A stretch of 64,000 nucleotides of DNA, taken from Eledone cirrhosa (Eukaryota). This document shows, one piece after another, positions 11,422 through 14,975 of the stretch (the first letter of the stretch is position 1; each line of letters opens with the position of its first letter). Location of the stretch: positions 62,001 through 126,000 of the forward strand of contig CAXHJY010000050.1 of NCBI GenBank assembly GCA_964016885.1, in the 5' to 3' direction. Below the pieces are notes generated by a model, which had not been told where the DNA came from, made no database searches, and worked only from the letters and a program-made list of their open reading frames with translations. The translations under genes and the position numbers were made by a program.

Positions 11422-14400
11422 ATTGGAATAAATGCTCTGAAATAGCGATATATATGTGAATATAGACATAGAATATTCGAAAATATTCTGTATGTTTATA
11501 ATAAACATTTTGAAGACCTAATCGCTATAGAATAGAATACGTCACGTATTACAATTAGATTCTCGATAAAAGCAAGGGAAGTAATCTACGCGTTTCATTC
11601 TCGTTAGAAATCATCAGGACTACATATCCAGTGCTTTTATCGAGAATGACACAGCTAGAGACTTATAGAATACTTAGCTGTGTACAGGAACTGGTTTGAA
11701 AGAGCGGTTGCCGGTCCGGCAGAAATTAGAAATTGGAATAAATGCTCTGAAATAGCGATATATATGTGAATATAGACATAGAATATTCGAAAATATTCTG
11801 TATGTTTATAATAAACATTTTGAAGACCTAATCGCTATAGAATAGAATACGTCACGTATTACAATTAGATTCTCGATAAAAGCAAGGGAAGTAATCTACG
11901 CGTTTCATTCTCGTTAGAAATCATCAGGACTACATATCCAGTGCTTTTATCGAGAATGACACAGCTAGAGACTTATAGAATACTTAGCTGTGTACAGGAA
12001 CTGGTTTGAAAGAGCGGTTGCCGGTCCGGCAGAAATTAGAAATTGGAATAAATGCTCTGAAATAGCGATATATATGTGAATATAGACATAGAATATTCGA
12101 AAATATTCTGTATGTTTATAATAAACATTTTGAAGACCTAATCGCTATAGAATAGAATACGTCACGTATTACAATTAGATTCTCGATAAAAGCAAGGGAA
12201 GTAATCTACGCGTTTCATTCTCGTTAGAAATCATCAGGACTACATATCCAGTGCTTTTATCGAGAATGACACAGCTAGAGACTTATAGAATACTTAGCTG
12301 TGTACAGGAACTGGTTTGAAAGAGCGGTTGCCGGTCCGGCAGAAATTAGAAATTGGAATAAATGCTCTGAAATAGCGATATATATGTGAATATAGACATA
12401 GAATATTCGAAAATATTCTGTATGTTTATAATAAACATTTTGAAGACCTAATCGCTATAGAATAGAATACGTCACGTATTACAATTAGATTCTCGATAAA
12501 AGCAAGGGAAGTAATCTACGCGTTTCATTCTCGTTAGAAATCATCAGGACTACATATCCAGTGCTTTTATCGAGAATGACACAGCTAGAGACTTATAGAA
12601 TACTTAGCTGTGTACAGGAACTGGTTTGAAAGAGCGGTTGCCGGTCCGGCAGAAATTAGAAATTGGAATAAATGCTCTGAAATAGCGATATATATGTGAA
12701 TATAGACATAGAATATTCGAAAATATTCTGTATGTTTATAATAAACATTTTGAAGACCTAATCGCTATAGAATAGAATACGTCACGTATTACAATTAGAT
12801 TCTCGATAAAAGCAAGGGAAGTAATCTACGCGTTTCATTCTCGTTAGAAATCATCAGGACTACATATCCAGTGCTTTTATCGAGAATGACACAGCTAGAG
12901 ACTTATAGAATACTTAGCTGTGTACAGGAACTGGTTTGAAAGAGCGGTTGCCGGTCCGGCAGAAATTAGAAATTGGAATAAATGCTCTGAAATAGCGATA
13001 TATATGTGAATATAGACATAGAATATTCGAAAATATTCTGTATGTTTATAATAAACATTTTGAAGACCTAATCGCTATAGAATAGAATACGTCACGTATT
13101 ACAATTAGATTCTCGATAAAAGCAAGGGAAGTAATCTACGCGTTTCATTCTCGTTAGAAATCATCAGGACTACATATCCAGTGCTTTTATCGAGAATGAC
13201 ACAGCTAGAGACTTATAGAATACTTAGCTGTGTACAGGAACTGGTTTGAAAGAGCGGTTGCCGGTCCGGCAGAAATTAGAAATTGGAATAAATGCTCTGA
13301 AATAGCGATATATATGTGAATATAGACATAGAATATTCGAAAATATTCTGTATGTTTATAATAAACATTTTGAAGACCTAATCGCTATAGAATAGAATAC
13401 GTCACGTATTACAATTAGATTCTCGATAAAAGCAAGGGAAGTAATCTACGCGTTTCATTCTCGTTAGAAATCATCAGGACTACATATCCAGTGCTTTTAT
13501 CGAGAATGACACAGCTAGAGACTTATAGAATACTTAGCTGTGTACAGGAACTGGTTTGAAAGAGCGGTTGCCGGTCCGGCAGAAATTAGAAATTGGAATA
13601 AATGCTCTGAAATAGCGATATATATGTGAATATAGACATAGAATATTCGAAAATATTCTGTATGTTTATAATAAACATTTTGAAGACCTAATCGCTATAG
13701 AATAGAATACGTCACGTATTACAATTAGATTCTCGATAAAAGCAAGGGAAGTAATCTACGCGTTTCATTCTCGTTAGAAATCATCAGGACTACATATCCA
13801 GTGCTTTTATCGAGAATGACACAGCTAGAGACTTATAGAATACTTAGCTGTGTACAGGAACTGGTTTGAAAGAGCGGTTGCCGGTCCGGCAGAAATTAGA
13901 AATTGGAATAAATGCTCTGAAATAGCGATATATATGTGAATATAGACATAGAATATTCGAAAATATTCTGTATGTTTATAATAAACATTTTGAAGACCTA
14001 ATCGCTATAGAATAGAATACGTCACGTATTACAATTAGATTCTCGATAAAAGCAAGGGAAGTAATCTACGCGTTTCATTCTCGTTAGAAATCATCAGGAC
14101 TACATATCCAGTGCTTTTATCGAGAATGACACAGCTAGAGACTTATAGAATACTTAGCTGTGTACAGGAACTGGTTTGAAAGAGCGGTTGCCGGTCCGGC
14201 AGAAATTAGAAATTGGAATAAATGCTCTGAAATAGCGATATATATGTGAATATAGACATAGAATATTCGAAAATATTCTGTATGTTTATAATAAACATTT
14301 TGAAGACCTAATCGCTATAGAATAGAATACGTCACGTATTACAATTAGATTCTCGATAAAAGCAAGGGAAGTAATCTACGCGTTTCATTCTCGTTAGAAA

Positions 14401-14741
14401 TCATCAGGACTACATATCCAGTGCTTTTATCGAGAATGACACAGCTAGAGACTTATAGAATACTTAGCTGTGTACAGGAACTGGTTTGAAAGAGCGGTTG
14501 CCGGTCCGGCAGAAATTAGAAATTGGAATAAATGCTCTGAAATAGCGATATATATGTGAATATAGACATAGAATATTCGAAAATATTCTGTATGTTTATA
14601 ATAAACATTTTGAAGACCTAATCGCTATAGAATAGAATACGTCACGTATTACAATTAGATTCTCGATAAAAGCAAGGGAAGTAATCTACGCGTTTCATTC
14701 TCGTTAGAAATCATCAGGACTACATATCCAGTGCTTTTATC
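11422..14741 (-). repeat. Tandem array of 10.7 apparently identical 310-bp units, one Type I hammerhead per unit (retrozyme-like)
   Basis: Unit starts at 11422+310n (n=0-10); HHR at 11581-11623+310n on the minus strand. Confidence 0.95.
11581..11623 (-). ncRNA. Minimal Type I hammerhead (first of 11 in the array)
   Basis: GUAGUC-CUGAUGA-UUUCU AACG AGAAU-GAAA-CGCG-UA^GAUUAC; helix I extended by the 16-bp AUUCUCGAUAAAAGCA/UGCUUUUAUCGAGAAU. Confidence 0.88.
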
Positions 14742-14975
14742 AAACCAGTTCCTGTACACAGCTAAGTATTCTATAAGTCTCTAGCTGTGTCATTCTCGAT
14801 AAAAGCACTGGATATGTAGTCCTGATGATTTCTAACGAGAATGAAACGCGTAGATTACTTCCCTTGCTTTTATCGAGAATCTAATTGTAATACGTGACGT
14901 ATTCTATTCTATAGCGATTAGGTCTTCAAAATGTTTATTATAAACATACAGAATATTTTCGAATATTCTATGTCT
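14742..14975 (+). mobile_element. Inverted partial unit capping the array, with plus-strand HHR at 14816-14858
   Basis: Reverse complement of part of the 310-bp unit; ends in (TA)n. Confidence 0.9.

Follow-up and report, generated by a model that had tools for sequence, protein, structure and literature searches.

Metazoan retrozymes without long terminal repeats (LTRs) are tandem arrays of non-coding units of 150-450 bp and low GC content, each carrying one type I hammerhead ribozyme, and having no LTR, no primer-binding site (PBS) and no polypurine tract (PPT) (PMC7229834). The same work shows their RNAs and RNA circles, and proposes that reverse transcriptases (RTs) of Penelope-like elements (PLEs) or of long interspersed nuclear elements (LINEs) copy these circles into tandem complementary DNA (cDNA). 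The window analysed here, a 64,000-nt stretch of the Eledone cirrhosa genome (assembly GCA_964016885.1, contig CAXHJY010000050.1, positions 62,001 to 126,000), harbors such an array, built on a 310-bp unit of ~34% GC and belonging to a large dispersed family. The class, the non-LTR retrozyme, is already known. From its sequence features, the element is probably a young, protein-free hammerhead tandem element, the RNA of which would be cut as a dimer, take a one-unit and probably circular form, and be copied by a PLE enzyme from both target strands.

In PLE insertions, an inverted copy truncated at its 5' end often occurs together with a tail of 30-40 bp on one side (PMC8557442), a two-arm layout that is standard for these elements. 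Once purified, a PLE protein was found to cleave as well as extend both strands, and two internal start sites on the RNA delimit the tail (PMC11167929). Multicopy head-to-tail non-autonomous elements, the arrangement found here, are described for Chlamys (Craig et al. 2021, PMC8557442). Minimal PLE hammerheads display a palindromic 15.2-16.2/loop 3 and are active as dimers; circles have been proposed to template more-than-unit reverse transcription (PMC4209133).

The 310-bp element resembles the metazoan non-LTR retrozymes in its non-coding tandem units, low GC content, hammerhead in every unit and dispersal over multiple loci. Its palindromic helix III and predicted dimer dependence recall the axolotl HHR_Amex1, and the U.U at the base of its helix II that of HHR_Amex2 (PMC7229834). 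RNAs and circles were shown for those retrozymes and are predicted for the present element; in contrast, two-armed insertions, fixed paired ends and haplotype sharing between arms do not feature in the available text of that paper, in which the word "inverted" is absent. A preprint (Li, Clavereau, Pollet 2026; 10.64898/2026.07.22.740005) regards animal retrozymes as non-autonomous PLE derivatives with units near 300 bp, which is likewise the case here. It ties them by sequence to the pseudo-LTRs (pLTRs) of PLEs, a tie not found for the 310-bp unit in the 30 GIY-YIG loci and 20 longer-ORF regions compared, and favours local array amplification; ends, tails, junctions and editing are not analysed in its accessible part.

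The insertion anatomy matches that of PLEs in the inverted 5'-truncated partner, the tail at one end, the (TA)n or AT-rich target, the extension of both strands and the two start sites, but, unlike the PLEs of those studies, the element has no open reading frame (ORF) (PMC8557442, PMC11167929). In the in vitro work of Frangieh et al. 2024, the two strands did not differ in the start sites used and hammerhead cleavage was dispensable (PMC11167929), whereas here each strand has its own site of a strict pair, and the ribozyme core appears to be under selection. The hammerhead shares the palindromic 15.2-16.2/loop 3 of minimal PLE hammerheads, dimer activity being established for theirs and predicted here; however, their conserved G10.1-C11.1 is a U.U in the present unit, and helix II has 4 bp instead of 7-8 (PMC4209133). 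Unlike an autonomous PLE, the element has no ORF with RT and GIY-YIG endonuclease domains, either in the unit or in the arms of the parsed insertions, and the 310-bp unit holds no long ORF. It also differs by its type I topology and tandem units from the plant LTR retrozyme, which has type III hammerheads in its LTRs and a 4-bp target-site duplication (TSD). In L1 twin priming, two target ends prime cDNAs that microhomology joins head to head, and the starts are the poly(A) and a random internal site. Here, in contrast, both starts are fixed, internal and 26-40 nt apart, and each arm spans many units.

Two-armed insertions and their ends

The preliminary description of the window had reported a perfect array of 10 full and one partial unit, lying in (TA)n, with one minus-strand type I hammerhead per unit and an inverted partial unit as a cap. 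Repeat scan and unit alignment bear out an exact 310-bp period over 3320 bp, i.e., 10.71 units, with 0 mismatches among units 1-10, 100% matches in Tandem Repeats Finder (TRF), 11 hammerhead copies and (TA)n runs on both sides, into which both outer ends of the insertion run. The inverted unit is present and matches positions 39-278 of the unit exactly as their reverse complement, the junction having an overlap of 2 nt, but it ends at 14979 and not at 14975, the latter position lying within the TA ambiguity. It is, furthermore, no side feature but apparently a second, separately primed arm that recurs in nearly all insertions of the family. The ends lie at positions within the unit, abut (TA)n and are not LTR-type, PBS and PPT having had no separate search; since the target is itself (TA)n, a TSD is unreadable. 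The locus bears the commonest haplotype of the family with zero variants and therefore cannot, alone, separate a circle from a linear multimer. Its history is read from the family.

A genome-wide search for arrays with the same terminus, suggested earlier, returned 987 and 122 matches of two terminus patterns. The 43-nt hammerhead has 4,033 exact genome copies, and a less variable 30-nt piece 18,874, with 0 for the reversed controls. Such exact patterns were counted because the unit's words are too common for a DNA similarity search, and the family comprises at least 18,874 units. At ~10 units each, these would represent an estimated ~1,900 insertions, and at 310 bp each an estimated ~5.9 Mb of near-perfect palindromic arrays.

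The sample consists of 140 regions on three contigs (labels such as L104 denote fetched regions or their insertions), of which 10 were drawn via hammerhead matches, 90 via the long-end junction and 40 via the short-end junction; 130 were thus ascertained by the TA junction at one end, the other end being unselected. "Long" designates the tail-bearing end and "short" the other. Together with the window, the regions hold 145 insertions: 124 long+short, one long+long, one short+other, 12 one-arm, five off the region edge and two complex. On inspection, the long+long case (L193) is a long+short insertion with a deletion in its first unit, and the other end of the short+other case is a TA run followed by another repeat. 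Long+short ends are therefore found in 125/126 complete simple two-arm insertions and short+short ends in none, while the end-unselected loci give 9/10 long+short. Two one-arm insertions abut assembly gaps, and no second arm made of PLE was found among the one-arm loci.

End and junction statistics cover 114 of the 124 two-arm loci, ten having been dropped because their phase could not be set. The long end lies at unit position 1 in 91/114 loci and the short end at unit 27-41 in each of the 111 loci where it could be resolved, an AT-rich tract making its place less sharp; a TA run of at least 8 nt flanks both sides in 101/114. Arms average 5.5 and 4.5 units, with a weak correlation between the two lengths (rho 0.29); 92% exceed one unit, and the longest have 20-30. 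As the start lies 165 nt after the cut, a linear monomer would yield only 165 nt of cDNA. Inner ends are scattered across the unit, 6/228 falling within 5 nt of the ribozyme cut vs 8.1 expected. Junctions without inserted bases (n=79) show 2.1 nt of microhomology vs 0.77 by chance; 35 others carry inserted bases, part of them parsing leftovers. In L179 (5552-5680), and also in L034 and L151, the inner junction is filled with reiterated 9-11-nt unit pieces, which resemble repeated slippage or telomerase-type reiterative copying.

That the array start does not coincide with the cleavage site had been taken as a sign of a circular template. This argument does not hold: the start is fixed at unit ~1 and matches PLE internal initiation, which occurs in vitro on linear RNA (PMC11167929). 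The proposal of a Penelope-type RT and endonuclease acting in trans fares better, the long+short footprint being common to the element and to this genome's PLEs. Protein-coding PLEs of the genome display long+short ends in 11/13 resolvable inverted pairs from five families, one pair being a local duplicate. Mobilisation of the 310-bp element by a PLE is hence well supported. The tail would correspond to the interval between two reverse-transcription start sites.

The predicted hammerhead and the variation among units

Each hammerhead is composed of a 6-bp helix I, the core CUGAUGA/GAAA, a 4-bp helix II and a helix III with the palindrome ACGCGU, and its predicted cut falls between 11587 and 11586 (+310n), the site proposed earlier. 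The base of helix II holds a U.U mismatch, absent from the preliminary description, which an A-U or G-U replaces in some haplotypes. Helix III, too short to fold back, could pair with a second copy (-7.5 kcal/mol, computed), and self-cleavage of the unit RNA is accordingly predicted for dimers. The hammerhead domain folds with z = -5.85, 0/200 shuffles being equally stable, and displays the 6-bp helix I and its 16-bp outer stem; the whole monomer reaches z = -3.91, and the second hairpin already noticed lies at 11649-11683. Rfam gave 0 hits in the window at gathering score, and at E<=10 seven weak matches, none of them to a hammerhead family, so it is from the core motif, the helices and the variation that the hammerhead is identified. 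Unit size, motif and palindromic helix III thus agree with a retrozyme carrying a dimer-type minimal hammerhead.

The family displays 42 haplotypes among 130 loci, with a present variant load, or divergence among its many dispersed arrays, of 3.9e-4. The haplotypes of the two arms agree in 80/83 loci, against 0.116 for random pairs. Units are identical throughout in 46/129 loci, and 19 single-locus variants, in 17 loci, are fixed across all covered units of both arms.

Among non-lineage fixed substitutions, 19/39 inferred origins are A>G in RNA sense, vs 12/134 single-unit substitutions (p=2e-7), 12 clustered of 172 single-unit changes having been dropped; restricted to distinct sites the figure is 10/39 (p=0.012), and the weight of these figures is tempered by the simple background heuristic with which origins were counted. 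These changes lie mostly in paired stems. Four recurrent stem positions arise on several backgrounds, the 16-bp outer stem holding such sites at unit 146, 216 and 217 in other copies, and all four are all-or-none (18 fixed, 1 mosaic, 486 absent). An edit made on one RNA unit that is present in every unit of both arms implies that one unit was copied repeatedly at some step. Haplotypes and A>G changes together agree with the earlier idea of a recent single event with repeated copying of one RNA unit. It is likely that a single processed RNA unit, probably circular, templates both arms.

Selection on the ribozyme is suggested by the distribution of variants in the hammerhead domain. At 16 core or palindrome positions fall 0/14 fixed variants vs 10/22 single-unit changes (p=0.003), two clustered loci being left out, in a test whose weight is lessened by its having been framed after the data were seen. 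Helix changes keep or create a pair in 5/5 fixed vs 1/9 single-unit cases. Two older, non-coding sister families of ~314 and ~321 bp, ~65% identical to the unit and with the same two-arm layout (L033:5868-6230, L111-L140; L094:9445-9950, L201-L230), both keep a self-complementary helix III with different sequences, one having a U3-A8 core. Core avoidance, pair-keeping and the sister helix III suggest that copies still jumping keep a working ribozyme, which fits obligatory cleavage.

Template models

The proposed cycle would begin with read-through transcription of an array. Adjacent hammerheads would then pair via the palindromic helix III and free 310-nt monomers, a function backed by the core selection, and the monomer would be ligated into a circle, the stems being sometimes A-to-I edited, as the A>G scars suggest. 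A PLE protein would cut both (TA)n strands, the 3' end of the left flank priming the long arm and that of the right flank the short arm, with starts at unit ~1 and ~27-41; the pairing of the ends is seen directly. Each RT would make a varying number of turns round the one template that both use, which the observed arm lengths accommodate, and the two products would be joined by the short microhomology seen at the junctions. A more specific version holds that a PLE dimer cuts (TA)n and that its two RT sites, each placed at one of the two fixed starts, run round one covalently closed, sometimes ADAR-edited 310-nt RNA, making the family a viroid-like lineage with a single-molecule bottleneck and ribozyme selection at each jump; on the sequence evidence this version could equally well prove right or wrong.

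Several observations weigh against copying of a processed, circular unit. Hammerhead mutants left PLE insertion unimpaired in vitro, unprocessed RNA being the main substrate (PMC11167929), and 1/9 dimer constructs cleaved in the Xenopus preprint (10.64898/2026.07.22.740005). The long+short ends are not seen in 2/13 of the genome's own PLE pairs. Over the whole unit, the core test is not significant (0/52 origins, p 0.06-0.12), and the 5'-neighbour pattern of A>G sites does not stand out from background. In L104, the clearest exception to a one-unit template, the order of haplotypes going inwards is A,A then B in each arm, and in L088 a first-unit variant is mirrored between the arms; an ordered template of several units, or a coordinated switch of template, would account for either. 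One arm of L079 switches haplotype midway, and a variant of L142b is confined to one arm. Variants of intermediate frequency occur in 13/129 loci, part of them within blocks that have been duplicated (L071, L194); arrays are thus altered once inserted as well. Finally, a covalent circle and self-jumping on a cut monomer are indistinguishable by genome data alone.

A linear multimeric transcript that is read from an existing array, left uncleaved and copied by the same PLE machinery from both ends of the target, with no circle, is improbable as the general template but probably explains a minority of events. The in vitro preference for unprocessed RNA (PMC11167929), the mirrored in-register heterogeneity of L104 and L088, and internal starts, which are possible without a circle, all suit it. 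However, mirrored variants occur in just 3/124 two-arm loci (L088, L104 and, by partial overlap, L079), over 112 kb in register, against 113 unmirrored ones, where ~20 inherited mirrored variants would be expected by our estimate if the parental load were half of 3.9e-4. The all-or-none A>G changes, the private fixed variants and the core selection require a one-unit bottleneck, and arms of 20-30 units imply a lengthening that is impossible by copying alone. That bottleneck, and the need for cleavage, would be met equally by a cleaved linear monomer on which the RT jumps from the 5' end to the RNA's own 3' end, a pseudo-circle without covalent ligation. Two lineages in which a 1-nt insertion is fixed at a distance of 1-3 nt from the cut (unit 162, 164), and the L104 switch interval, which takes in the cut site, speak for such jumps. 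Inner ends, however, show no excess at the cut site, single-unit scars there are rare among the 22 single-unit domain changes, and jumps between molecules would mix haplotypes, yet the arms agree in nearly all loci. This template is judged quite improbable.

Arrays might instead have grown after short PLE-type insertions, by unequal crossover or slippage in the manner of satellites. The block duplications in L071, L092 and L194 are of this kind, and local amplification is discussed in the preprint of Li et al. Divergence of the unequal-crossover type, which the preliminary description had named as contrary to its idea, does not prevail: only the 13 loci above carry variants of intermediate frequency, whereas over a third (46/129) have identical units, private variants are common to both inverted arms, many dispersed arrays stand at very low divergence, and arm lengths resemble a broad processivity distribution. 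Later expansion is thus very improbable as the main source of the arrays. An assembly artefact in array length is hardly credible. Perfect identity at the locus, a copy number taken from the assembly, and arrays that abut assembly gaps (L048, L196) speak for it, but haplotype, junction and arm lengths are specific to each locus, and in contigs from public short-read runs the unit forms a closed tandem, although the DNA analysed here may itself come from such a run.

These runs also bear on the spread of the element. The unit is near-identical in 20 sequencing runs from 17 studies and 18 organism codes, 65-100% of its words being present; no RNA run was among the matches. Horizontal spread or a free replicon was rejected for now, since in 4/4 tested runs a flanking repeat that is abundant in the host is found too, so that they contain host-type material; the unit probably got there by carry-over, through diet or from close relatives. 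Closed 340-nt contigs from the runs are expected from any tandem array and are no sign of an RNA circle. With the alternatives so weighed, a processed single unit, probably circular and copied from both target strands by a PLE enzyme, remains our preferred account.

Machinery, neighbouring elements and significance

The features of the two-armed insertion are collected in Table 1.

Table 1. Parts of the 310-bp element insertion in the window (hammerhead and stem positions are those of the first unit)
Feature	Position	Strand	Basis or remark
Left (TA)n target flank	11275..11423		TRF and junction parse
Long-end (tail-bearing) arm, 10.71 identical 310-bp units	11422..14741	RNA sense -	outer end unit position 1, inner end 220
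"Tail", unit positions 1 to ~27-39	11422..11460	-	confined to a single outer end
16-bp outer stem extending helix I	11559..11647	-	fold; variants in other copies
Type I minimal hammerhead, 43 nt	11581..11623, +310n, last 14681-14723 (11 copies)	-	motif, fold, helix pairing
Second hairpin	11649..11683	-	fold
Inner head-to-head arm junction	14740..14741		2-nt microhomology
Short-end arm, 240 bp in inverted orientation (from unit 278 to 39)	14740..14979	RNA sense +	one hammerhead
Hammerhead of the inverted arm, single copy	14816-14858	+	43-nt motif match
Right (TA)n target flank	14975..15054		TRF

Which PLE might act in trans was sought among the PLEs of this genome, clade labels being a motif reading with no tree. 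Two have long open ORFs, L261:3809-6622 (938 aa, with RVT_1 and GIY-YIG matches) and L263:1775-5062 (1096 aa, stop to stop), and are candidates for still-active elements. No pLTR homologous to the unit was found in 30 GIY-YIG loci and 20 longer-ORF regions, of 10,596 candidates, and the 3' ends of PLEs near the fetched loci show no homology to the unit. A Neptune-like family ends ~124 and 164 nt after its cut, vs ~127 and 165 here, with no common sequence; as a partner it may be a weak lead. Naiads had been named earlier as the enzyme source. This assignment is not upheld: Naiads are without canonical hammerheads in the available description (PMC8557442), the GIY-YIG domain lies near the ORF end, a C-terminal layout, in 30/30 translated loci, no Naiad-specific search having been made, and no homologous partner was found.

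Further candidates were discarded as partners. Two diverged homologues proved to be the older non-coding sister families, of the same layout, and a short element with a hammerhead helix II similar to that of the unit (L266:600-830, L269, L278, L117), which a TATA-like box precedes, has different ends.

The array adjoins on its right a broken PLE, Hydra-like by motif reading (window 15054-18600, minus strand), which has its own hammerhead, likewise with helix III palindromic, around 18520-18579 and is without homology to the unit. Other PLE fragments lie at 4094-5170, 7186-7815, 31544-33442 and 52158-54296 of the window, a LINE RT ORF at 21327-24236 and a LINE fragment at 62356-63357. An isolated match to a terminal motif common to three sister families occurs at ~40079. 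Outside the window, an unrelated ~484-bp hammerhead tandem family with palindromic helix III is present (L044:2200-5200, L036, L190, L271), and L187:3869-6499 (minus strand), which lies a few kb away from an insertion, contains a host-like ORF of 877 aa in a single frame, whose repeats are rich in Cys and whose C-terminal part is hydrophobic.

Copying of circles of animal retrozymes by Penelope-type enzymes has been proposed since 2014-2020, and is not shown in the literature examined, as far as it was accessible. Two-arm, one-template or editing evidence for retrozymes was not found in a literature search excluding subscription journals and bioRxiv supplements, and in the retrozyme texts available such mechanistic evidence is not described. 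At the level of sequence, the present family provides evidence of an RNA bottleneck of one unit, of ribozyme selection and of paired PLE start sites, one per strand. The latter would explain the one-sided tail of PLEs. A 310-nt RNA with exact predicted starts also offers a simple substrate for rolling-circle target-primed reverse transcription. If the model is true, RNA editing would supply heritable change to the genome through two-headed rolling-circle copying.

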